Virus record (IMG/VR): IMGVR_UViG_3300042452_000786 | Coordinates: 11,875-75,874 of that record | DNA from: a virus | Strand: one strand, 5' to 3' | DNA: 64,000 bases | Shown here: positions 5,769 through 50,000 of the stretch, one piece after another | How the letters are laid out: the number at the start of each line of letters is the position of its first letter | How positions within the stretch are numbered: the first letter of the stretch is position 1 | Program-made: the position numbers and the translations under genes | Notes under the pieces: model-generated | The model's database searches: none | Seen by the model: only the letters and a program-made list of their open reading frames with translations | Told to the model about the DNA's origin: nothing

Positions 5769-7078
5769 CGGCTGATCTCTTCGAAGTCCATCGAAGCGTA
5801 AATGTTTGCTCCATTTGAACTTGCAGCCGCAACTAACGTCAATTCATACGGCGTGCTAGTAAACGGTTCTCGTTCCAGCTGGAACTTAAACAACGCTTCT
5901 TTAAGGATGTCAATTGTGTTGCGGGATTGGTTGGATGCACTGGAGTAACCAGAAGCAAGGATGCGTCCGCTAGCAAACGATGTTCCTGTGATGTTGTACT
6001 CAACTGCAGAATCTACTCCGGCGCTTACCCACGTACCGCCTGTTGTTGTTCCGCTTGCAATGACTTGCCAGTTGTAGTTAGCGTTGTTTGTAATGCCCAT
6101 AATTGAAAGGGCTGTAAGAATGACAATTGCATCTAAACGATTGGGAGAAGCTTTAAGGCGAATTGAGATTACAGGGTAGTAAGTTCCTGCTGTGGTTAAA
6201 GCATGAGGTGTAGTAATCGGAACGCTGATTGCTTTCTGAGCGCCACGTAATTCGTATCCTCCTTCTGATAAAACAGAAGAGCAAATTTGTTTTAGCGTAC
6301 TGCTACTTGCTGTTGTTGCTGTGTTTTCAATCTCATAACGCAGCGGCAGAGAAGCAGTCGTAATGTACGTTGATGCAATTACGTTTGCATGTTGGAACAC
6401 GTGGCAAGCAACAAACTTGCCGTCAATAACAAAACCCAGCCGCACACTGCCAAGACCTAACCACTCAATATCCATCCACAGGATTTGAGCTTTGGTAACA
6501 TCCAAAGTCATTCCGGAGATCCCCGTTCCATCCAAGGGATCAAGGTTCCAGTTGGATTGAGAAACTCGTGTTTCAGTTACTGTTCCAGTAACAATGCTGC
6601 GTTCAACAAAAGAAAGGGAGTTAGCACCTGTGCCGTTTAGCTCCAGGTACATGCCATTGTCGTTGCCGTAATAGCCGACACGCTGTCTCAACCCTGTTTT
6701 GGCAGGGCTCATTACAAAAGTACTCAGCACCAGCAAAGATTTGCCGGGTTGGTAAGAAAAAACTTTGGTGGTTTCGCGGTAAACCCTGGAGCCAGATGTA
6801 GTCGTTACGGCTAAATCAACTAAACCTTGGTTGGCGTTAAACGTTGTTGTGCCACCAGATGCAGTAGACGTTGCCCACAGCCCGTTCTCCCGGTAACGAT
6901 GGCTGGAATCAAACAGAGTCAAGGGCGTAGAAACCCGAAGGCGACCAAAAGAATCAATAGAAGAAGGTTGTGCTGCTGTACCAGAGTCAAGAATGACCCT
7001 CAGTGGTTCATCCAATAAACCGGATACCTTAACTACCTCGTAACGAGCTTCATCTCTTGGGTCAATAATTGTTGCCAC
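5765..7078 (-). CDS. putative virion structural (beta-rich spike/fibre-like) protein
   Basis: DSFGRLRVS.P.TLFDS, YQPGKS, WLG.G.VR.GF motifs; Ser/Thr rich; paralog of 30969..33893. Confidence 0.6.
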   Translation of the reverse strand: MATIIDPRDEARYEVVKVSGLLDEPLRVILDSGTAAQPSSIDSFGRLRVSTPLTLFDSSHRYRENGLWATSTASGGTTTFNANQGLVDLAVTTTSGSRVYRETTKVFSYQPGKSLLVLSTFVMSPAKTGLRQRVGYYGNDNGMYLELNGTGANSLSFVERSIVTGTVTETRVSQSNWNLDPLDGTGISGMTLDVTKAQILWMDIEWLGLGSVRLGFVIDGKFVACHVFQHANVIASTYITTASLPLRYEIENTATTASSSTLKQICSSVLSEGGYELRGAQKAISVPITTPHALTTAGTYYPVISIRLKASPNRLDAIVILTALSIMGITNNANYNWQVIASGTTTGGTWVSAGVDSAVEYNITGTSFASGRILASGYSSASNQSRNTIDILKEALFKFQLEREPFTSTPYELTLVAAASSNGANIYASMDFEEISR

Positions 7079-7163
7079 GCCGCGCCTAAAAAACTATCTA
7101 CTCAGTTTAACGGTTGCATTCCAGATTAGAAAGGTTAAGCTGTCCCTGTTACTACTTCCTGTC

Positions 7164-7403
7164 ATGCGGGAATCTAAAAAGATCAGGTACAAGGGAAAGC
7201 CTTCTGAGATCCTGGAGTCTATCCTTTACGAAGGCTACGAAATTAAAAGTCTTAAGCACGGCAACACAGGCCACACTCTATACAGCTCGCCAAGCAAGGA
7301 ATATGAGTGGGAAAACTGCTGGGGCATGGATCTTCAGACAGCAAAAAACAATGTGCTGAAGTACAACCAACACCTGACTGAAACAAGTTCGGTGCCAGGG
7401 TGA
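7164..7403 (+). CDS. hypothetical protein
   Basis: 79-aa ORF with ATG start. Confidence 0.55.
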   Translation: MRESKKIRYKGKPSEILESILYEGYEIKSLKHGNTGHTLYSSPSKEYEWENCWGMDLQTAKNNVLKYNQHLTETSSVPG

Positions 7404-7449
7404 AACGCCCGTAGAATCAACACTGTATCGATTTTGTGGTAGCTGAGAA

Positions 7450-7710
7450 GTGGTTCGCCCGGTGATGACTGATCTCATGGATGACCTGGCAATGGACATC
7501 CATGCTTATCTTCTTGAAATTTCTACCGAATACCAAGGAAATAACTACGTCCTGATTCCAATTACGGATGTCGTTAAGAAGTTTCAACGGAATCACCGCA
7601 CCATTCAGCGGCGCATTGGTGCGCTTAAAGATGAAGGGCTTCTTGTTCCTGTCATCCGCAAAAACACGATTGCGCTCTACCACGTTAAAGAACAGGAGGA
7701 CCAACCATGA
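7450..7710 (+). CDS. winged helix-turn-helix protein
   Basis: ITDVVKKFQRNHRTIQRRIGALKDEGLL. Confidence 0.6.
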   Translation: MVRPVMTDLMDDLAMDIHAYLLEISTEYQGNNYVLIPITDVVKKFQRNHRTIQRRIGALKDEGLLVPVIRKNTIALYHVKEQEDQP

Positions 7711-8481: not shown

Positions 8482-9393
8482 ATGCCCCCTGCGTTGCTTG
8501 AAATTCCTGCAGCAGTTCTTGGAAGAGAAGAACTGGAGCGCAAAATTCATACAACGTACGATCGGACTGCATCGTATAAGCAGTTCGTGGATTATCGATC
8601 GGAAGGAGATACCCGGCTCCAGGATAATATCGGAAGGCTGTACCGAACTCCCTACGGTGCATTGGCATCCACTACCACAATCTTGAGTGCTACTGGTGGT
8701 AACAAAGCTGCTCTTGAACGTTGGAATCAGAAAAACCCGGGTAAACGAGAGGAGGCGGCAAAGCGTGGAACTCTTGTACACTCTTACATGGAGCGGTACA
8801 TGCTGGGAGAGCGCAATTTTGAAATCGATTCTGCTGTTGAACCGTTTTGGCGAGACCTTCCTAAAAACCTGGATAAACTGGGTCGTTGTATTTGGGCAGA
8901 AAATCCTCTCCACGATGCGTTTCCTTGGTGCGTAGGAGCAGATGGCATCTCCAGGGTGTGGCATCCTGGTCGATGCGAATCCGAGGTTCGTGGCTGGGCC
9001 GGGGCGCCAGATTTAATTTTTGAATACAAAGGTAAAATTGTATTAGGAGATCTAAAGACAAGCGCAAACCGATACTACGCACGCTGGCCAGGGCCTGAAA
9101 CACCAAAATCGGAATACGGCTTGAAGCGTGCAGGATTCCTCAAGTACGAAAAGTGCCAACGTCAAATGGCTTCCTACGCTTTAGCGTGTGAGCACACCAT
9201 CGGCATTAAGCCCGAAATCTTAATGACCTTTGTGTGTACAGAAGAAACTACTCAAGTATTTGCTATTCAAGGCTCTACAATCGACAAGTACAAAGAAAAA
9301 TGGTGGGACACTGTAGATAAGTTTTACGATGAACTCAGCAACAAAAAGCTAAACGAAATTGACATGAAAGTTGTTGATGGAGATAAAGGCTAA
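8482..9393 (+). CDS. PD-(D/E)XK exonuclease
   Basis: STTTIL, RGT..H...E, AG.PD...DLKTS, Q...Y motifs. Confidence 0.8.
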   Translation: MPPALLEIPAAVLGREELERKIHTTYDRTASYKQFVDYRSEGDTRLQDNIGRLYRTPYGALASTTTILSATGGNKAALERWNQKNPGKREEAAKRGTLVHSYMERYMLGERNFEIDSAVEPFWRDLPKNLDKLGRCIWAENPLHDAFPWCVGADGISRVWHPGRCESEVRGWAGAPDLIFEYKGKIVLGDLKTSANRYYARWPGPETPKSEYGLKRAGFLKYEKCQRQMASYALACEHTIGIKPEILMTFVCTEETTQVFAIQGSTIDKYKEKWWDTVDKFYDELSNKKLNEIDMKVVDGDKG

Positions 9394-10310
9394 TGAAAGA
9401 GAAAAAATATAACTATGTTTATGCTGTTATCAATTTTGATCAGCGCCTTGCTTATATTGGCTCCAGAGGTAGCAATAAACCACCCCTGGAAGACTCCTAC
9501 ATGGGCAGTTTCAAAAAAGACTCAAAGTTTGTACCTGTTAAAAAAATTATCCTTAGTGAACATCCTGCAAGAAAAGAAGCTTATGATGCCGAGAGAGAAT
9601 GGCAAATAAGGTTCAATGTGGCAAAAAGTAAACTCTTTGTTAACAGAGGTATCCTGACTTCTTCGGGTTTCAGTAACGCTGGAAATATCGGAGGCATCGG
9701 GCACATGAAAGGAAAAACGCACACAAAAGAAACAAAAAGACAAATTAGAAATAAAATGAAAAGCCGATTTAAAAATGTAACAGTCAAAAATATTGATACA
9801 GGAGAAGTGTTTAGTTTTGACTCTATCGGCCAAGCGTCTCGCGAGTTGAAGATTTCCTCTACTCAGTTAACTTTTTTGTTGCAAGGCAAATACAAAAGAA
9901 CTCACAATTACTGCCTTGAAAACACTGATACAAGCATTTTTGAAACAAAGTTTGTTTTAAAGAACTCCACTACCGGAGAACTTGTTGAGGCTACATCTCA
10001 AGCTGAGATGGCTAATAAAATTGGTGCCGGCTCAGGAAGCGTGTCCCGTGTCTTCAGCGGTTTAAGGCTTTCCGTTAAAGGTTATTGTTTACCGGAAACA
10101 GACGTTAGCTTGCTTGGTATTAAAAACCGCACTATAAAATTATTCAATACTTGCACTGAAGCAGTTGAAGAATTTAAGGGAGTTACTTCAGCCGCTAAGA
10201 AAATTGGCGTCAGCCACTCGTTGGTGTCAATGGTATTGAAAGGAAAGAGGCCGCGAGCGGGTAATTACGTGCTCTGTCCGGTGTTTAAAGGCGGGGACTC
10301 ACAGGACTAA
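9393..10310 (+). mobile_element. free-standing GIY-YIG homing endonuclease with NUMOD3 and repeated NUMOD1/HTH modules
   Basis: YVY..YIGSR, A..AE, KGKTHTKETK, three F.S...A..(L/I) HTH repeats; visibly AT-richer than its neighbours. Confidence 0.8.
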
Positions 10311-15792: not shown

Positions 15793-16689
15793 TCAGGAAC
15801 CAAAAGCTCCTTTACCCTGCATCCCCTTAAGAACACCTAAGTTCTTCAAGAAATCTTCGGCTCGGTCGCCCACCGGCATCTGGGAAGACGCGTTCTGAGG
15901 GTTTGTTTTGGCAGCAGCCAGAGCATTAGCTTGAAAGTACGGTGCGCTTACAGCTTGACCCTGGGTCATGGCGCCGCCGGGAAGCTCAAAAGGCTTCATG
16001 ATAGGGTCTGTACCAGCAAGGGAGCTGGTGTCAAAGCCACCTGCAGCGTAGTCGGCGGCTTCTGGTTGTGCGGTCGTGCCAAGGAGTTGAGAAGCTTTAC
16101 CGCTCTTGGCGTACTCACGCTGAGCCAGCATGGGGTTAGCTCGGGCCCACTCAGCCATTGGTCCCTGGTAACCCATGGCAGAGATGATCTCCTCCATGTT
16201 CCCACGGCCTGCAGCGCTCTGAGAGCGGTAGTAGCTTGCCAGGGGAGTGTCGGTCGGAGCTTTTGTCTGGCCCGCTAACGCCTGCATAGCCGCAAGGTCC
16301 TTGGGGGCTCCAGCGCCACGGGAAGCAGCACCAAAATAAGGATCCATTTCGCTGCTGCCGAAGTAGCGATCAAATTGACCCTGAGGATTCAAAGCGTATT
16401 GCTTGTAGAGATCGGATTGAGTGCGGTCAGGTGTTACGCCGTCACGGGTGCCACGAACAATGGGAGTGGGGCGTTGCCCAGGAAATCCTGCACCTGCACG
16501 AAAATTCTCTGCTGCCTGTCCAGCCGCTAACTCAGCCTGTTTGTAGTTAGTGGGAAGGTTGCGGACGCCAGGTTGCCACATTTTGTCGGGGCGATCAGTT
16601 AAACCTTGCACACGATTTAACCAATCAACTGCATCTTGGAGTGGGCCCCAAGGCTTCCCACCTGTTGGACGACTAATAGGAACAGGCAT
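15793..16689 (-). CDS. hypothetical Ala/Gly/Gln-rich protein (possible internal virion protein)
   Basis: 298-aa low-complexity ORF. Confidence 0.6.
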   Translation of the reverse strand: MPVPISRPTGGKPWGPLQDAVDWLNRVQGLTDRPDKMWQPGVRNLPTNYKQAELAAGQAAENFRAGAGFPGQRPTPIVRGTRDGVTPDRTQSDLYKQYALNPQGQFDRYFGSSEMDPYFGAASRGAGAPKDLAAMQALAGQTKAPTDTPLASYYRSQSAAGRGNMEEIISAMGYQGPMAEWARANPMLAQREYAKSGKASQLLGTTAQPEAADYAAGGFDTSSLAGTDPIMKPFELPGGAMTQGQAVSAPYFQANALAAAKTNPQNASSQMPVGDRAEDFLKNLGVLKGMQGKGAFGS

Positions 16690-16738
16690 TTAATTACAAC
16701 AATCCTTTCTTACAATAATAGTATCGATAAACGTAACA

Positions 16739-16927
16739 ATGGACGTTCTTCAAACTTTTGATAACGGAACAACAATTGAATTTGGTGAAGATAATCACGG
16801 CAACCAAGTTCATCGCATCTGTACTCCCAGTGGGTCGATGTGCCGGTTTGCAGAGCCATACCACGTAGCACTCACCTATGCGCAGCAATACGAAGAGTTC
16901 TACGCGGTTAAGCCGGACTCAAAGTGA
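16739..16927 (+). CDS. hypothetical protein
   Basis: 62-aa ORF, divergent from 15793..16689. Confidence 0.55.
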   Translation: MDVLQTFDNGTTIEFGEDNHGNQVHRICTPSGSMCRFAEPYHVALTYAQQYEEFYAVKPDSK

Positions 16928-16954
16928 GTCTTGTTGAGACAGACCTAAGAACTG

Positions 16955-17287
16955 TGTGGGTACTACTTGTGCCAGTACATTCTTAAAGTGCACGGCTATG
17001 TACTCTCACAGGTAGAACCCACACTCAGAAACCACCGCTTGGTCCGCCCCAAAGGGGCAGAAATTTGTCTTGAAATGGTAGCGTTGTGAACATTTCGGTG
17101 TTTGTGGTTCTCAAGAAATTGCTTTGTTTGGCTGAGATCCCTTGCGGTGCAAGGGCATCTGATAAACGACCAAGAGGAGTCAAGATTTCGGCTATTTCAC
17201 TTCCCGTGTAATTTTGTGGGTACTACTCTTGACCGTATATTGGAGGCCCAAAAAGCCAAAAATGTACGGGCACAGGGCTAACCCACA
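16955..17287. promoter_or_regulatory. array of four 26-bp TGTGGGT-N13-GTAYAT boxes in two inverted pairs
   Basis: Boxes at 16955-16980(+), 16998-17023(-), 17215-17240(+), 17262-17287(-). Confidence 0.8.
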
Positions 17288-17348
17288 AAAAGTCTTCTAA
17301 GATAAAAAAGGCGTTTTTTTGACTCCTTTTGGTCGTTTATTAAAACCC

Positions 17349-17377
17349 TTGACACGACAGGGGTTTCGACCTACTCT
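17349..17377 (+). promoter_or_regulatory. sigma70-type promoter
   Basis: TTGACA (17349-17354), 17 bp, TACTCT (17372-17377), upstream of ATG 17399. Confidence 0.6.
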
Positions 17378-17398
17378 GCACTTGAACACTAAAACCTC

Positions 17399-18565
17399 AT
17401 GGAAATTCTGCGTTTTTTCTTTGAGTCCAGCCTGTCCAGCGATGATGCAGTGGCTTTTGCCAAAGCTGTTCAGATCTGCTTCCACACCCTTGGTGGCGAC
17501 AGGTGTTGGTGTATGGACAAGAGCAAACACTCTTCTTTTCAGGGGTTTGTCACCAGTCACGGTTCCCGGTTGCTCTACAAAAACCAAGACGCCAGACCGT
17601 TTCTTCTTGCTCTCAGCAACCGCTTCTACAGTGACGACAGGCCAGTTATTGTTCGCAGGTCCTGCTGCACCTCTAAGTACTGTCTGAACCCCTCCCACGT
17701 TTATTACGGCACCAGGAGCGACGTTGCGCTTGAAAACGAAACCAAAAAACCACAAGCAAAAAAACGCCGCACTGTGGTAACAGTAGAAATGGCGGAACAA
17801 ATGCGTCAATGTCGAGACGCAGGTGAGACTATCCTGAAACTGTCAAGACGATACAAGCTGCCTTATCACGTTGCACGTCGCATCTGCAGTGAAAATGCAT
17901 ATTCCAGTTACAACGGAAACTTCAGTACGAAATATTTAGAAAAGTTGTGGCAAAAAACGATTGAAAACTGCGTCGAAATTTGTAAGAATAATCCAGAAGC
18001 ATCCCGCTCCTACAACCTGGCGTATCACGTGTCAACTCATCTTGAATGCCCCTGGCACCGGAAAGGACAATCCAGTCACAAAGGCAACTTTGGCCTCATG
18101 GGAGAATGCCTGGACTGCATGGAAGAGATTAAGAAAGGACGCTGCACGGTTGATGTGCGGGAGTTTGATCTTGACTGGTATTGGCAGGTCAAGCGCTTCT
18201 GGGAACAGGTTGATATTAAATCCAATGACGAGTGTTGGCCTTGGCGCGGAGCAACACGTCGGGACAACAAAGAATCGTTGGCGTATTTTCCGTCTCCTTT
18301 TCACTCGGGTAAAGTTCATTCCGCTCCCAGGGTTGCTTTTTGGTTGAGCCGTGGGTACACAGGCAAATATCGCGTCTTTAACAAAAATACGTGCGAGCCC
18401 TTTTGCTGCAACCCGTTGCACATTACAATAAGGGAATTGAAAGGCTGCCCTGATCCAACGGGTATTGCCGATATACAACTGGTTCATACCAATGTCTTCC
18501 AGCACTACAGAAAAAATCTTCAGCAAGAGCAGTCAAATTCTGCCGTCGAACTACCACCTTCCTGA
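17399..18565 (+). CDS. protein with two degenerate HNH/His-Me zinc-finger domains flanking an HTH
   Basis: CWCM...CCTSKYCLNPSH and CWPW.G...CEPFCCNPLH; central TILKLSRRYKLPYHVARRI. Confidence 0.65.
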   Translation: MEILRFFFESSLSSDDAVAFAKAVQICFHTLGGDRCWCMDKSKHSSFQGFVTSHGSRLLYKNQDARPFLLALSNRFYSDDRPVIVRRSCCTSKYCLNPSHVYYGTRSDVALENETKKPQAKKRRTVVTVEMAEQMRQCRDAGETILKLSRRYKLPYHVARRICSENAYSSYNGNFSTKYLEKLWQKTIENCVEICKNNPEASRSYNLAYHVSTHLECPWHRKGQSSHKGNFGLMGECLDCMEEIKKGRCTVDVREFDLDWYWQVKRFWEQVDIKSNDECWPWRGATRRDNKESLAYFPSPFHSGKVHSAPRVAFWLSRGYTGKYRVFNKNTCEPFCCNPLHITIRELKGCPDPTGIADIQLVHTNVFQHYRKNLQQEQSNSAVELPPS

Positions 18566-18830
18566 AAAACAATACGTCGGTTGCGTTCGCATCGGCCCCA
18601 AAAATTACTACACTCCTTACTACGCTTCAATTGATGAAGCTGCATTGGAGTTGCGTTGCTTGGAAAAACAACTCAGTTATGAGCTGATTAAAACTGTAGA
18701 GGAAGACGGCTTCTACCCTCATCGCGCTATACTTATAGAAGAAAAGTATCAACAATCCGGCAGGACTAATGGTCTATATACCGGATTGAACATGCAAGAT
18801 GGCTCGTTATCTGTCGACAGTCCCGAATAA
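18492..18830 (+). CDS. hypothetical protein (AP2-like pattern possible)
   Basis: YVGCVRIG.KNYY...YASIDEAA. Confidence 0.45.
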   Translation: MSSSTTEKIFSKSSQILPSNYHLPEKQYVGCVRIGPKNYYTPYYASIDEAALELRCLEKQLSYELIKTVEEDGFYPHRAILIEEKYQQSGRTNGLYTGLNMQDGSLSVDSPE

Positions 18831-19473
18831 TCTAGGGTTTTTTAACCTAGGGACTGTACAAAGTTATCCAACGGGTGGAACAGGGCCGACAGCATATGGA
18901 CCTACATCATATTTCGGTTCTGATCCACTCCCTGCGAACGCTGGAGATAGCCTCTACACTGCTGTTGATCTGGGCAATTTTAGCTCTCCGTTCAGGTCTA
19001 TAACAATAACCAACTCACATGGTGGCTTATCTCGGCGTCAAACAACATTTTACAGGCTGAGTTTAACGACACCTAGGGCTATTCAGTTTACCCAGAATTA
19101 CAGCCAGTTTGCTTACACGGCAAACACAAACAAGAACACCCTGGTAGCTTTCTATAAAATTGCAGAAGGCACAAAAAGAGTAGAGCTGCCAATCAACAAC
19201 TTAGGTTACGTTTACAAAAGCACTGGTCTGGATTACGACAGCGAAGACGTTGATTATTCTGACTATCCAATTACCAGGCTCGACCCAGGGGAATACCTTT
19301 TTTTAATTACAAACGATATCCGTTACTTAGAAACAACGTATTCGATTACATTAAACATTGCTTCAACCGACTGGCGTTATGTATATGAAGGCGTTGATGA
19401 TGCGCTTGACTTTGGCTTAGTAACAGAAGCGCTAAACACAGAAAGTGTTGACTTTGGTCTTATCAGGTCTTAA
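18799..19473 (+). CDS. beta-sandwich (PPC-like) putative virion decoration protein
   Basis: A.DLG, FYRL.L, L.PGEY..I motifs; C-terminal LDFGLV/VDFGLI. Confidence 0.45.
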   Translation: MARYLSTVPNNLGFFNLGTVQSYPTGGTGPTAYGPTSYFGSDPLPANAGDSLYTAVDLGNFSSPFRSITITNSHGGLSRRQTTFYRLSLTTPRAIQFTQNYSQFAYTANTNKNTLVAFYKIAEGTKRVELPINNLGYVYKSTGLDYDSEDVDYSDYPITRLDPGEYLFLITNDIRYLETTYSITLNIASTDWRYVYEGVDDALDFGLVTEALNTESVDFGLIRS

Positions 19474-19497: not shown

Positions 19498-19752
19498 ATG
19501 AAAGTCATCACTGTGCAGAAACTTCAAGAGGATCTTGAGGCAATCCTGGATGACGTGTCAGACAACAAAGCTATCTATAAAATCCAAACCGAAAACGGCG
19601 ATCTTATTTTGATGCCTTACGACCACTACGAAGTAATGGCAGACGCATACAAAGAATGGGTTGACGAACCTAAAAGTAGTTTAAAAGAGGAATTCGACCC
19701 TTATCCTTTGCCTGTTATGTATGTTGACGATGCTGAACCTAAACCGCTTTAA
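19498..19752 (+). CDS. Phd/YefM-like antitoxin-fold protein
   Basis: MKVITV..L...L..ILD.V......I......ILMP...YE. Confidence 0.65.
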   Translation: MKVITVQKLQEDLEAILDDVSDNKAIYKIQTENGDLILMPYDHYEVMADAYKEWVDEPKSSLKEEFDPYPLPVMYVDDAEPKPL

Positions 19753-25943: not shown

Positions 25944-26004
25944 TAGCAGTGAATTTTTTTATGACTTGATTAACAGTATGCCGTATGTGATTTCAGCATT
26001 ACTA

Positions 26005-28623
26005 TCAGTCGTGTGCCTTAATTAGGACATAGCCAGGGGTGACGCCTAAGCCAGCTGCGCTTACTCTAACGCGCATCAGTGCAGCGTTGATATCAAGCAC
26101 GGTCAACTGCACCGTGCTACTAGCCACAGCGGTGAGCGGGGTGCCGATTGAATACCAGCTGGCTCCGTTGTCGTCTGAACCTTCCATCTGAAGCGCAGGG
26201 GCGGTGGTGGCAGCGCCGATGTTTACCACCAGCTGGGCGCGGTTGCCTGCGTCCCTGGTATCGAGGCTTGGCGTCGTCGAGTTTAGTGTGGTCAGCACGA
26301 TCGAGCGGTCAATCAGCTGGCGCACGGCTTCGGAGCTGTTGCTGTTCTGCAGGCGGTTGATTGCCCTGGTAAACGATGGCGTGGTGCCGCCCACGGTCTG
26401 CACATAGCGCACCCGGTTGCCGACAATCCTAATCAGCGGTGAGCGGTAGATTCCCGTGCCGGTAATCCTCGGGAAGTCGTAGACCTTGAACCAGTTGCCG
26501 CCCGAATCGTCGGATTCTTCAATCGCCACATCCAGCGTTGGCGTGCTGCCCGTGACTGCGGTGACCGGGATGCTGACGCTGTAGCTGGTGCCAAATGTCG
26601 GCGTGAATGCCGCCGTGGTCGTGGTTGTTGTCAACGCGGCTGAGGCCACATCCGCGATGATGCCCGGCAGCGCCAGGTTGGCAGAGGTGACGGCTGCAAC
26701 GGTGCCTGTGCCGATGTTGGCGGTGACGGTGCCGCTCACCGGCTGGGTGCCCAACGCACCGCCCAGCACCTGCACCGGCAGCGCATGGCTGCCAACGGGA
26801 TCGCTACTCGCTACTCGGATCTTCTGCCGTCCCTGATCCTCAATCTGAATAAATCCGGTTGTCAGTGTGGTGGTGCTGGCCGGCGCAGTGCTGCCGTTCT
26901 GCACCACGATGAACAGGTACAGCACCGTCTCAGGATCGGGGACGTTCTCGATCCTGCTGGCTCGGTTTGTCCACTGGTAACCGGTGTTACTGGCCACCAG
27001 CGCATCAGAGAATCCGGCCGTGAGTACGTCGAAGTTGATCTGCCCGACATGGCCAGGCGATGCAGTGGTGTTGATCGTGGCGGTGGTGTTGCCGCTGTTC
27101 CAGCCACGGCGCTGTGCGTCGAAGCTGGCATTGGTCGCAGTGGTGCCGCTGTACTCCAGCTGGATGTAATTCCAGCCGTACAGGGTCAGGGTGCCACTAC
27201 CGGATGCTGGCCATGCTGCAACGGTGAAGTTAACTGTGAGCCCTGAGACGCTGGCAATGGCATAGCGGCCTGGGATGCCAGCGGCGCCAGTGATTCGCGA
27301 CAGTCGGACGCCCTGGCCGACATTGGCCGCTGTGAACGGGTTGGTGGTGGGGAAAGTAACCGTGACGCTGGTGGCGCTGTTGATTGTGTAGGACAGCGCC
27401 TCGCCAATGAGATCGGCCAGCTCGTATCTGAATGTCTGGTTAGCGATCCTCTGAGACAGGATCACCTTCAGGCGTGCCAGCAATGAGCCTGAGAACGTAT
27501 CAATCGAGCGGATCACCGTTTCGCTGTTGGTGGTGGTGCCGGTCGTGATGACAAGGTTCCCGGCCGACTGGTTCACCGTCATGCCGCTGCCCGTCTGCAG
27601 CAGGGTGAACTCCTCGGCCGCTTTGCCGACGATCCCGCTACCGACTTCAGCAAAGCCAGCACGCATAAATGCCGGGGCGCTGTTGGTGACCGGCACAGGC
27701 GAGGCCCGCAGCTCGCTGTTAGTCAGTCCGCTACCGCCAGCTGGCAAAACCACCGGCAGACGGCCGCTGTCCAGTGCCGGAAGCTTCCCGTTCACTGCTG
27801 CCAGCGTCGTCTCTGTTGCGGCGCCAGTCGGAAGCGGTAGGGCACTGGCGCTTACTGGCTGCGTGGCCTGCCAGAACGTGCCAGACACCGGCACCGCCGT
27901 GGCTCGCAGCTGGACATCAGTCAGTGGGCCGGAAACCGTGGGGGTTCCACTGATAGTGACCGCAGGGGTTCCAGTGATCGAAACACTTCCACTGATCGGC
28001 TGAGTCGCCTGCCAGAACGTGCCAGACACCGGAACTGCCGTGGCTCGGAGCTGCGTGTCCGTGAGCGGGCCGCTTACGGAAACCGCTGCTGCGCGGAGTT
28101 GCGCATCAGTTAACGGTCCTGAGACTGCAGCTGTACCTGTAATTGAAACACTACCGCTGATTGGTTGCGTAACGCCGCTACCATCCACTGGCACGCGACC
28201 GCTTACCAGTGCTGGTGTTTTCCCGTCAATGCTGGTTAAACTGCTGTTACCACTTGTTTGATTGGCTGCAGTAGCTGCGCCTGTTGGCAATGGCAAACTG
28301 CTTACACTTGCCGATACAGCAGAAGCACGTAATTCCGAATCCGTAAGGCCGCCAGAACTTGTACCTTCTTCTACAAAAATCTGAAGCCTATCACCAGAAC
28401 TCATTGCACTGGTATCGTAGGTTAACGCAAGAGTTGTATTACCCCCACCAGTACTAACTGTTCCCCCTAGAGAATTAACATCAAACTCGTAAATTATAAT
28501 GTTGTCTGTTACATTTGTAATCAATAAAAACTTTTCTAACGTATACGTACCAGGAATTGTTACTGTTCCAACAGTAGAAACACCCGGCGTAAAGGTGTAA
28601 CTTGTAATCAATTTCTTAGCCAT
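26005..28623 (-). CDS. tail fibre/spike-like structural protein
   Basis: LTD.QLRA..V.VSG and TFWQATQP repeats; Thr/Ser/Gly rich. Confidence 0.75.
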   Translation of the reverse strand: MAKKLITSYTFTPGVSTVGTVTIPGTYTLEKFLLITNVTDNIIIYEFDVNSLGGTVSTGGGNTTLALTYDTSAMSSGDRLQIFVEEGTSSGGLTDSELRASAVSASVSSLPLPTGAATAANQTSGNSSLTSIDGKTPALVSGRVPVDGSGVTQPISGSVSITGTAAVSGPLTDAQLRAAAVSVSGPLTDTQLRATAVPVSGTFWQATQPISGSVSITGTPAVTISGTPTVSGPLTDVQLRATAVPVSGTFWQATQPVSASALPLPTGAATETTLAAVNGKLPALDSGRLPVVLPAGGSGLTNSELRASPVPVTNSAPAFMRAGFAEVGSGIVGKAAEEFTLLQTGSGMTVNQSAGNLVITTGTTTNSETVIRSIDTFSGSLLARLKVILSQRIANQTFRYELADLIGEALSYTINSATSVTVTFPTTNPFTAANVGQGVRLSRITGAAGIPGRYAIASVSGLTVNFTVAAWPASGSGTLTLYGWNYIQLEYSGTTATNASFDAQRRGWNSGNTTATINTTASPGHVGQINFDVLTAGFSDALVASNTGYQWTNRASRIENVPDPETVLYLFIVVQNGSTAPASTTTLTTGFIQIEDQGRQKIRVASSDPVGSHALPVQVLGGALGTQPVSGTVTANIGTGTVAAVTSANLALPGIIADVASAALTTTTTTAAFTPTFGTSYSVSIPVTAVTGSTPTLDVAIEESDDSGGNWFKVYDFPRITGTGIYRSPLIRIVGNRVRYVQTVGGTTPSFTRAINRLQNSNSSEAVRQLIDRSIVLTTLNSTTPSLDTRDAGNRAQLVVNIGAATTAPALQMEGSDDNGASWYSIGTPLTAVASSTVQLTVLDINAALMRVRVSAAGLGVTPGYVLIKAHD

Positions 28624-48047: not shown

Positions 48048-50000
48048 TCAAACGATGGTGAAAGCTGCGGTGACGAAGTCCTTGTTCAGGTTGGCAAAGC
48101 CAGCGTACAGCTGCCAAATCAAGATGATAAAGCGGCTGAAGTCATCGTTGTTGTTGATGAGAACCTGAGCGTTGGGGCCACCGATGCCCACGCCAACGGC
48201 CTGAGGACCGAAGAACAGAGCAGGAGGAGTGTTGTGAGACACAGCGCCGAGACCGTCGCCAGTGTCCACAGTGATGGACTTGTCAGCAAAGTTGGTGGAC
48301 TCGAAGAAACGTACGCCTTCAAAGACAAAGCCAGAAGGCATGATCGGTTCACCAGCCACGAATTGAGCTTGGCCGTACTGACCGCCGCCATAGATGGAGG
48401 CGTTGGGAGCCATGGCACCCATAAGGGGGTTAGGCTGGCCCATGCCAGGGTAACGAGCCACTTCACGGAAACCTTGGTCAGCACGCAGATCCTTCATGAA
48501 AGAGGGATCAGCAATACAGCGGTAGTAACCGTCAGCAAAGACAGGCACATTGCGCTTGCGGAGTTGCTTGACAACTTCCAGAAGGTCAGTTTTGACGTTG
48601 AACTTATAACGCTCAGAAGCGTATTCTGTAGCGGAATAAGCAGTCAGCGTGGTAGAGCCAGTCTTGATCTTACCGTTGGGGTAGTAGTAACCACCTTGGG
48701 TGTCAGAAGAGGCACCACGAGCTTCCGATTTCGAAAACTCATCAAGGAACACACGATCGCGCCAGCGGCGATAGTCGTCTAGCAGGGTCAGCGAACCGAT
48801 GGACTGGTGGAACATGTTAAGGTTCCCGGTGTCCAGCAGCAGACGCTGAGCGGTCATCAGAGTCTCACGAGCAATTTTGAAAGTGCTCGGGAGGTTGGAG
48901 TTGTTCGGGTCGGCAGGACCAGTGTACTCACGCAGAGAGACGAGCACTTTGTCCTTAACGATGGAGCGGCTATTAGCCGTACCAATCGTTTGGTCTTGGG
49001 TACGCTCACGCTGAGTTTTGGTGCCGGGGTTGCCCCAGAAACGGTACCGGTCTAACTGAACAGTTTGACCAGGCTGTTTAGTGAAGTCGTGGACAACAAC
49101 AGGCTCGGCTGCCATTTCCACAATATAAGCCGGGTGGGGACGGTACAGCTCCGCGCCCAACAGCTTGGGAAAATCGTTCTCCTGATCTCCAGTCTCCTGA
49201 AGGGGTGGACTATCTCTTCACCCTGTAAGGGTGCCGGGCGCTAATGGCGTATTACGAATGAAGCGTCATTCACCGCCTAGTCTCTGCACCTTCCAACTAC
49301 GTACTTAGTTGGCTTGGCTCAGGATTACCCTCGACTTGACGTTAGGGCTTCCCTGAATTCACCCGGTTTTCACTGATCAGTTGCCTGATCAGGCGACAAC
49401 GTTGACTACTCAGCTAAGTCGTGTTAGGATTGGAATCAAGTTGTTTTTATACAACATGGAACCAAAACTTGTTCCTGGATTTGAAAACCTTTACTTGAGC
49501 TTTTCTGGGACTCCTTATCAAAAAATCAATGAAGACTTTGTTGAATTAAAGGTCAGCTCATCAAGCATGTACGACAGGGTTTCTGTTCTTAAAAATGAAA
49601 AGAAAGAAAGGCACCATGTACACGTTCTTATGGCTGTGACATTTTTAGATTTAGATTTAGCTTTACACGGAACCGGAAGTGCTTCTCTTCAAGTTGATCA
49701 CAAAGACGGAAACAAAAGAAACAATTCTCTTGAAAACCTTGAAGTTGTTACAAAAAGAGAGAATTACGATAGGGCGTTAAAAGCTGGGTGCTACTCTAAA
49801 AATGGTTACGCCAGTAAAGGTAGGCCAAAGAAAACATTAAGAAAGTTTTCGGAGGATGACATTGTGCAGATTAAAGAAATGAGATCAGACGGTCTTTCTT
49901 ATAGAAAAATTGCTGCTTACTTTAACTGCAATCACTTGGCCATTTATCAAATCTTAAAAGGAAAAACCTATCAGGATCTGAGTTAGCTATCGATAAACAT
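48048..50000 (-). CDS. major capsid protein (N4-gp56-like), spliced: join(complement 49989..50000, 48048..49178), 380 aa
   Basis: Position after portal and scaffold; G.TVQ..RY, GV.F.EST, ALFFG..A.G, D..R...L.W motifs; in-frame join gives MFID-NDFPKLLGAELYRP. Confidence 0.85.
49179..49988 (-). mobile_element. group I intron (810 nt, IC-type core)
   Basis: P AAUUCAGGGAA, Q AAUCCUGAGC, R GUGCAGAGACUA, S AAGAGAUAGUCC; exon ends in U, intron ends in G; P1 CGAU/AGC pairs with GUUGUCG. Confidence 0.92.
49456..49986 (+). CDS. intron-embedded HNH homing endonuclease, antisense to the host gene
   Basis: VH.L.A..F, VDHKDGNK.NN...NLE.VT..EN, C-terminal HTH. Confidence 0.88.
   Translation: MEPKLVPGFENLYLSFSGTPYQKINEDFVELKVSSSSMYDRVSVLKNEKKERHHVHVLMAVTFLDLDLALHGTGSASLQVDHKDGNKRNNSLENLEVVTKRENYDRALKAGCYSKNGYASKGRPKKTLRKFSEDDIVQIKEMRSDGLSYRKIAAYFNCNHLAIYQILKGKTYQDLS

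Follow-up and report, generated by a model that had tools for sequence, protein, structure and literature searches.

A predicted nuclease-dead tandem His-Me finger protein and the conserved nested palindrome upstream of its gene in cyanophages related to S-EIV1

Among the His-Me finger proteins, group 2 is the I-HmuI group, and the MH1 domain of Smad represents a degenerate homing endonuclease that has lost the catalytic histidine and kept its ability to bind DNA (PMC5714182). NFI-X, whose fold is MH1-like, carries a CCCH zinc site made up of C103, C156, C162 and H167 (PMC12630593). Nuclease-dead His-Me fingers that act as DNA readers are known in this way from eukaryotic Smad and NFI, and the literature searched held no phage example of a dead His-Me finger kept as a sequence-specific DNA reader. 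The candidate analysed here is protein P0001 of a freshwater cyanophage, an apparently inactivated protein that is the product of a core gene of its phage lineage, together with a large nested palindrome directly upstream of that gene. The window, that is, the whole 64-kb stretch of DNA analysed, to which all coordinates refer unless another record is named, comprises bases 11875-75874 of a 75.9-kb IMG/VR record (IMGVR_UViG_3300042452_000786) of 88% estimated completeness. The record occurs in many lake-water DNA metagenomes and was listed in no RNA run, and its portal-like protein is 51% identical to the counterpart in Synechococcus phage S-EIV1.

The domain order of P0001 is also that of the tandem proteins in which HNH_3 (zf-His_Me_endon) units are combined with a helix-turn-helix (HTH) domain, and the profiles can be aligned over the full length. 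P0001 differs from these proteins in that the catalytic His has been lost from every unit, and the metal-binding Asn from domain 1; it carries an extra CxxH...CxxC module, and no Pfam model matches it at threshold. The distribution also differs: instead of a sporadic mobile insert, P0001 is a syntenic core gene of the S-EIV1-like cyanophage lineage in both marine and fresh waters.

A nested palindrome at the P0001 promoter

The gene for P0001 (17399-18565, plus strand, 388 aa) is preceded by a gap of 471 nucleotides (nt; 16928-17398) without a conserved open reading frame (ORF). The original prediction, made from the letters of the window, placed in this gap four 26-base-pair (bp) boxes, and they are borne out exactly: the pattern TGTGGGT-N8-TG-N3-GTAYAT has four exact matches in the 64-kb window, at 16955-16980 (box 1, plus strand), 16998-17023 (box 2, minus), 17215-17240 (box 3, plus) and 17262-17287 (box 4, minus), where 0.17 would be expected by chance and none of 100 shuffled sequences reached four. 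The spacers of 17 nt (boxes 1 and 2) and 21 nt (boxes 3 and 4) and the 260-bp offset between the starts of the two pairs were likewise confirmed. When the scan was widened to the entire 75.9-kb record, these four boxes remained the sole matches, and patterns for the box, the half-box and O_R (described below) with the promoter found no copy beyond this locus in genome scans.

The four boxes had been taken for the whole of the array, and in this the prediction fell short, as they are the core of a larger cis-element with the layout O_L, box, box, O_R. Boxes 1 and 2 with their 17-nt spacer form palindrome H1 (16954-17024), whose 27-nt arms are 85% complementary (23 of 27 Watson-Crick pairs and one G-T). 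The earlier statement that the variable positions are not complementary between arms therefore applies to the N3 triplet and a few other positions, and not to H1 at large. Boxes 3 and 4 with the 21-nt spacer form palindrome H2 (17212-17290), which is the universal core of the element. H2 is flanked by an inverted pair of outer sites about 148 bp apart: O_L (17164-17173, minus strand, AAACGACCAA; family form ACnnCCAA) and its mirror image O_R (17329-17338, plus strand, TTGGTCGTTT; family form TTGGnnGT), the latter 20 nt 5' of a -35 hexamer. An additional O_R-like TTGGTC site (17035-17044, plus strand) lies 11 nt 3' of H1 and is 90% complementary to 17168-17177. The complete nested imperfect palindrome extends over some 275 bp (17111-17385), with its centre at the H2 loop and the promoter in its right arm; its outer arms (17139-17197 and 17305-17363) are 59 nt long and 71% complementary. 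The segment 17110-17390 is predicted to fold as a single rod at -116.8 kcal/mol (z -9.9 against shuffled sequences).

The predicted promoter is of the sigma-70 type, TTGACA-N17-TACTCT (17349-17377, plus strand), and its 3' end lies 21 nt ahead of the P0001 start codon. TTGACA-N17-TAnnnT occurs only once in the 75.9-kb record, at this promoter, and both TTGACA and TAnnnT are kept in relatives. A simple consensus scan for promoters and terminators called nothing in 16500-17500, missing this promoter because its -10 hexamer matches at just three of six positions. The -35 hexamer is itself surrounded by a small dyad, CCCTTG...(C)AGGG (17346-17362), which has a mirror copy on the left arm (17139-17155). 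The promoter-side copy is kept in freshwater relatives, and the dyad may be a separate operator.

A database search with P0001 gave 188 matches at an expectation value (E) of 0.001 or below; among the 120 listed, identity was 49-99% over most of the length. The comparison drew on 114 P0001 loci in viral and metagenome contigs of marine and freshwater origin; blastn and tblastn of a phage collection with the region and with full-length P0001 gave no match. All 53 loci with sufficient upstream sequence (protein identity 48-99%) contain an H2-type palindrome at -155 to -188 relative to the start codon, in agreement with the proposal that the boxes would be conserved beside the homologue. H1, an optional second copy of the element, is confined to relatives with an intergenic gap of more than about 440 nt. 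The outer pair ACnnCCAA...TTGGnnGT surrounds H2 family-wide, with z up to 15: O_R begins between -69 and -74 relative to the start codon in 36 of the 39 distinct upstream regions, usually 20-22 nt 5' of a TTGnnn hexamer and with TTGG and GT invariant in an alignment of 13 sequences, and O_L lies at about -203 to -220. Across the family the element measures 160-275 bp, and the dyad is extended also in two other loci, L039 and L029, the former with a GAAA loop at the H2 tip. The inner-motif distance within a palindrome ranges from 5 to about 30 nt. The box sequences vary with phage lineage; within one genome both arms and both palindromes stay similar. Contig ends are roughly 2.5-fold commoner in the 400 nt upstream of the gene, where the palindromes lie, than farther upstream, which may reflect assembly breaks at inverted repeats or local hypervariability.

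In the cultured phage S-EIV1 the homologue corresponds to the C-terminal half only (225 aa, E 1.5e-8). It is encoded at 7027-7704 on the minus strand of KJ410740.1 (L121:2528-3205), in an open 225-aa frame of which GenBank annotates 147 aa, placing two tiny opposite-strand ORFs in the 5' part. Upstream of this frame lies an analogous nested palindrome in which a 29-nt outer inverted repeat encloses a 13-bp inner inverted pair with a spacing of 20 nt. The 13-mer occurs a third time, sharing two bases with a perfect TATAAT box and ending 13 nt short of the ATG, a position that looks like a classic operator site. Since S-EIV1 has its own nested palindrome beside the C-half homologue, the association of palindrome and gene outlasts very deep divergence despite the changed sequences.

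P0001, a predicted homing-endonuclease descendant

P0001 contains two CW...C-x4-C-x-NP-x-H units, one on either side of an HTH (residues about 122-168) that is followed by a helical linker. The units belong to two degenerate His-Me domains, at residues about 30-115 (C36/C90/C95/H100) and about 258-345 (C279/C332/C337/H341), the second of which is preceded by a CxxH...CxxC zinc module at residues 217-249 with C217, H227, C237 and C240 invariant. As the original prediction had remarked, the His expected ahead of the first Cys, here two residues before it, is missing from both units (VRRSC and NKNTC), and this holds throughout a 30-member alignment; the CCCH sets C36/C90/C95/H100 and C279/C332/C336-337/H341 are invariant in the same alignment and are predicted to be zinc sites. 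In domain 1 the catalytic His column of the V-x-H-x-C motif is occupied by R88 (R, K, S or T across the family), and V109 aligns with the metal-binding Asn of GTQKEN. In domain 2 the residue two before C332 is N, P, T or K in the family, hhalign places a gap at the template His column, and there is no GT...N segment.

The descent of the protein can nevertheless be followed in its profile. Full-length P0001 aligns by hhalign with P0183, an active tandem HNH_3+HTH protein, at a probability of 97.4% (E 1e-11), and residues 263-343 match the HNH families PHROG 1872 (E 4e-10) and 3593 (E 4e-6). Searches of the C-half by tblastn (E up to 1) reached S-EIV1 and HNH genes of actinophages, the latter at 30-37% identity over about 80 residues, and the P0001 family profile matches more than 20,000 His-Me proteins. 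In some of the remote relatives, degenerate His-Me units precede an active one. By contrast with these hits, Pfam and NCBIfam returned no model for P0001 or its neighbours (in the case of P0001 and Pfam, not even at E 0.01), and sequence-profile searches of all Protein Data Bank (PDB) sequences, made with two alignments (A3 and A4), gave nothing, with no Smad or NFI even at E 10. The sequence evidence supports the view that P0001 descends from a homing endonuclease and is a nuclease-dead tandem His-Me/HNH_3 protein with an HTH and an extra zinc module; the earlier suggestion of a domesticated, nuclease-dead protein of homing-endonuclease type is strengthened to that extent, by the substituted catalytic columns as well as by the predicted fold.

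In the full-length AlphaFold2 model the C-terminal half was poor (predicted local distance difference test, pLDDT, 67), and fold searches with this model returned the HTH only, which resembles the HTHs of IstA, Tc3, Hin and resolvases (Z 5-6.7). Modelled separately, residues 205-360 gave a pLDDT of 87 and a predicted template modelling score of 0.84. When this model was compared with 48,161 PDB representatives, only four reached Z of at least 2, all of them low: the NFIC DNA-binding domain (Z 5.2, root-mean-square deviation (rmsd) 4.4, 107 residues aligned), Smad4 MH1 (Z 4.6, rmsd 3.2, 84 residues), I-PpoI (Z 3.4) and I-HmuI (Z 2.4). The list consists of His-Me-finger folds only, two of them nuclease-dead DNA readers and two homing endonucleases. 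Foldseek also ranked NFI and Smad first, at E 0.3-1. The C-terminal half may accordingly have an NFI/MH1/I-PpoI/I-HmuI-like fold, although Z is low.

Several observations bear on the build of the protein. In a freshwater subclade (L129, L130, L131, L134 and L140) the homologue is split between two ORFs, one for the N-half (about 167 aa, at most 197) and one for the C-half (about 235 aa), which overlap by some 128 nt in different frames (for example L131:1669-2172 and 2045-2752); the arrangement may reflect a genuine split, translational coupling or a programmed frameshift. Half-length proteins are common among the representatives at 50% identity. A further homologue, P0012, is a mosaic: from about residue 215 on it is almost identical to P0001, and its N-half, which groups with P0022, is only some 40% identical, which suggests recombination at the domain boundary. 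From the split ORFs, the half-length proteins and the mosaic together it follows that the N- and C-halves are separable modules. For the short-form homologues P0126 and P0137 the search found no loci. A division of labour in which the variable N-half would read the variable outer motif and the conserved C-half the conserved inner one was considered and set aside, as loci whose N-half is only 34% identical keep similar outer motifs.

Proposed local promoter control and its alternatives

The fixed distance between the array and the gene's consensus promoter, together with the S-EIV1 box at -10/+1, leads us to rank local promoter control first among the possible functions, with a probability of about 0.45. 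Several copies of P0001 would occupy the boxes in both arms of the duplex, and O_L and O_R, some 148 bp apart, would be drawn together around H2. The resulting complex, in which O_R starts 20 nt 5' of the -35 hexamer, would set the activity of a strong promoter for the host RNA polymerase, and the outcome might be that P0001 regulates its own gene, or that the cassette it opens is switched on or off early. We infer both the role of P0001 as binder, from adjacency, co-conservation and domain content, and the direction in which it would regulate. The more ambitious roles proposed in the original prediction fared less well: because the motifs are present at a single locus, a genome-wide regulon, and with it a master regulator, is unlikely, and a packaging site finds no encouragement in the position of the terminase gene, 37 kb away. 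No T7-type RNA polymerase was found in the phage, in a search whose control was uninformative.

There is also evidence that weighs against local promoter control by P0001. The boxes are connected with the protein by adjacency alone; its structural matches are weak (Z about 5) and P0001 has no Pfam hit; and the C-terminal half is conserved to an extreme that would be unusual for a phage operator-binding protein. A second group of difficulties lies in the DNA. At 7 of 12 pairs O_L and O_R show compensatory double changes (G:C to C:G, A:T to T:A), and dyad symmetry continues through the stretches between the motifs, features that a constraint for base-pairing would explain more easily than would separate protein sites. 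The inner-motif distance, at 5 to about 30 nt, is too variable for a rigid dimer to read both arms, and such freedom is what the loop of a hairpin would show. An additional pairing constraint, acting through a cruciform or a single-strand hairpin, may therefore be superimposed on the recognition of sequence.

That the pairing serves an RNA is nevertheless quite improbable. On this proposal, H1 and the 275-nt rod would fold in read-through transcripts that start at the orf62 promoter, and would serve as sites of RNase III-type processing, as stabilisers or as translational gates for the P0001 message. The orientation of orf62 and P0001 is the same, without a called terminator in between; shuffled sequences fold far less well than the region; and the O_L:O_R compensatory pairs, the free loop length and the GAAA loop of L039 would suit an RNA. 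The arms themselves speak otherwise, with the reservation that the loci compared are phylogenetically related, so that counts of arms, mismatches and covariation are not counts of independent events. There is no plus-strand excess of G-U-compatible (G-T) over A-C mismatches, whether in the redundant set (86 against 94) or in the non-redundant H2 set (37 against 37), and the non-redundant H1 set (16 against 38) favours the minus strand, the wrong one for an RNA. Roughly one fifth to one quarter of the positions in the arms are true mismatches. Where both palindromes are present (21 loci), the complementarity of an arm to the partner in the other palindrome (0.691) matches that to its own (0.694), and identity between same-side arms (0.765) exceeds partner complementarity in 19 of the 21. 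L-type and R-type arms form distinct conserved classes (TGAGTGT against TGACTGT; for example TGAGTGTATAT against TGACTGTTAAA), and their conserved arm-specific bases place G opposite G, which breaks the pairing. RNAalifold did not recover H2 as a consensus helix, Rfam, searched with gathering thresholds and again with E relaxed to 10, yielded at the locus no more than chance-level matches to microRNAs and CRISPR repeats, and transcripts from the gene's own promoter would not contain the structure. The results on mismatches, on cis and trans complementarity and on arm classes, with those from RNAalifold and Rfam, favour recognition of the box sequences on duplex DNA, and a sequence-specific constraint on the arms is evident from the alignments. 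The original preference for double-stranded protein sites over RNA hairpins is upheld by the arm classes and the lack of G-U strand bias, and is qualified by the compensatory changes in O_L and O_R.

Ranked second, and unlikely in our estimate, is a replication origin, the role with which the original prediction had associated an iteron-like array. P0001 would then be the initiator, melting or extruding the nested palindrome and recruiting the PrimPol-helicase and the family-A polymerase, and the promoter would provide transcriptional activation. The arrangement is reminiscent of palindromic origins that carry initiator boxes on both arms, such as the lambda ori iterons and HSV (herpes simplex virus) oriL/oriS. 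The phage has its own PrimPol-D5 helicase and DNA polymerase A, the element lies a few kb 3' of the primase gene both here and in S-EIV1, there is one such locus per genome, and the covariation of the arms and the free loop length would fit extrusion of a cruciform or hairpin. Moreover NFI, the nearest fold, is an origin-binding factor for adenovirus (PMC12630593). On the other hand, the cumulative GC skew runs flat across about 14-22 kb and has no turning point at the site, albeit a weak test for a phage; no clear conserved AT-rich unwinding element is present, the H2 centre here not being AT-rich; an origin would not need to keep so closely conserved a distance from the -35 hexamer and the start codon; and the third box of S-EIV1 at -10/+1 looks like an operator. 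A combined proposal, in which P0001 would be a viral counterpart of Smad-MH1/NFI acting on a TTGG-core palindrome both as the switch of the strongest early promoter and in origin recognition, is in our judgement equally doubtful. Least probable of the four is that the palindromes are read by some other factor, such as a host protein, the product of another phage gene (orf62 or orf112, for example), or an enzyme that acts in recombination or is structure-specific, P0001 being simply the gene 3' of them. The adjacency already mentioned is compatible with this, the second small dyad CCCTTG...CAGGG overlaps the -35 hexamer, and the excess of contig ends hints at a fragile or variable DNA structure. 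The boxes are, however, specific to each lineage and similar within each genome, as would fit a co-evolving phage factor and not a conserved host factor; S-EIV1 keeps its palindrome beside a truncated homologue though neither orf62 nor orf112 was seen there; and P0001 is the only protein of the cassette with recognisable DNA-binding modules. Boxes of the types read by the cyanobacterial host factors NtcA and LexA gave no fit by eye.

Neighbouring genes and comparison with known systems

The gene order orf298 (minus), orf62 (plus), palindromes, P0001, orf112, orf224 and orf84 is conserved. The plus-strand cassette begins with orf62 (16739-16927), which was located by tblastn in 51 related loci, always 5' of the palindromes, and has no Pfam or PHROG match. 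Next to P0001, orf112 (18492-18830, plus strand; matches in 58 related loci) overlaps the 3' end of the P0001 gene by 74 nt (18492-18565), being read in the +1 frame, and relatives share this overlap; a stretch of its product (YVGCVRIG...IDEAALELRCLEKQ) has by eye the look of a degenerate AP2-type strand-strand-helix unit, without library support. The most conserved neighbour is orf224 (18799-19473, plus strand), found in 110 loci, always directly 3', and with weak beta-sandwich look-alikes only. In every locus fetched through orf224 with enough upstream DNA P0001 was present, and no cassette without it was met among them. The N-terminus of orf84 (19498-19752) is Phd/YefM antitoxin-like below threshold (E 0.0026, 18 bits).

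Elsewhere in the phage, genes for terminase, tail fibre, endolysin, PrimPol-D5 helicase and family-A DNA polymerase are present. Immediately before the PrimPol-helicase gene, a 305-aa ORF (9393-10310) with NUMOD1 and I-HmuI-NUMOD-like motifs is probably a free-standing homing endonuclease. A group I intron lies on the minus strand at 49186-49426 (Rfam, 93.7 bits), and a GC-rich island at 26000-28000 (0.62 against about 0.46 for the genome) falls within a gene for an 872-aa virion protein.

Arrays of sites at or between promoters are familiar from other systems: the sites for phi29 p4 lie between early and late promoters, lambda OR and OL act with looping, and the res sites of Tn3 and gamma-delta lie upstream of tnpR. 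The present array is like these in having several imperfect inverted repeats with unequal spacers just 5' of, or overlapping, the promoter of the putative binder's gene, and the HTH of P0001 is of the resolvase type, although P0001 has no recombinase domain. It differs in its much longer boxes (26 bp per arm) and in that the whole region is one nested palindrome. Lambda O with its origin, and HSV oriL/oriS with UL9, are similar in having repeated boxes, which in the present array too may be of initiator type, on both arms of a palindrome at one locus near replication genes; the array is unlike them in its lack of a skew signal and of a conserved AT-rich unwinding element, and in its fixed phasing to a promoter. 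Hardly any gene of this phage group has a known function, and the element provides a candidate for its early-promoter control region or its origin.

With regard to the protein, NFI reads palindromic half-sites of the TTGGC type, and the invariant TTGG/CCAA core of O_L and O_R resembles these, though the resemblance may be due to chance. The spacing C279-53-C332-5-C337-4-H341 in P0001 is also similar to that of the CCCH site in NFI-X. P0001 differs from Smad and NFI in that no sequence homology to them is detectable and Z is low, and in that it is a viral, prokaryote-associated protein with tandem units and a fused HTH. If the proposed role is correct, P0001 would be an independent and still traceable case of a homing endonuclease turned into a sequence-specific organiser of a nucleoprotein complex, and its natural split forms, with separate N-half and C-half genes, would expose the modular build. 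Given the large conserved cis-element and a cultured member of the group in S-EIV1, the role of this putative domesticated homing endonuclease is directly testable.

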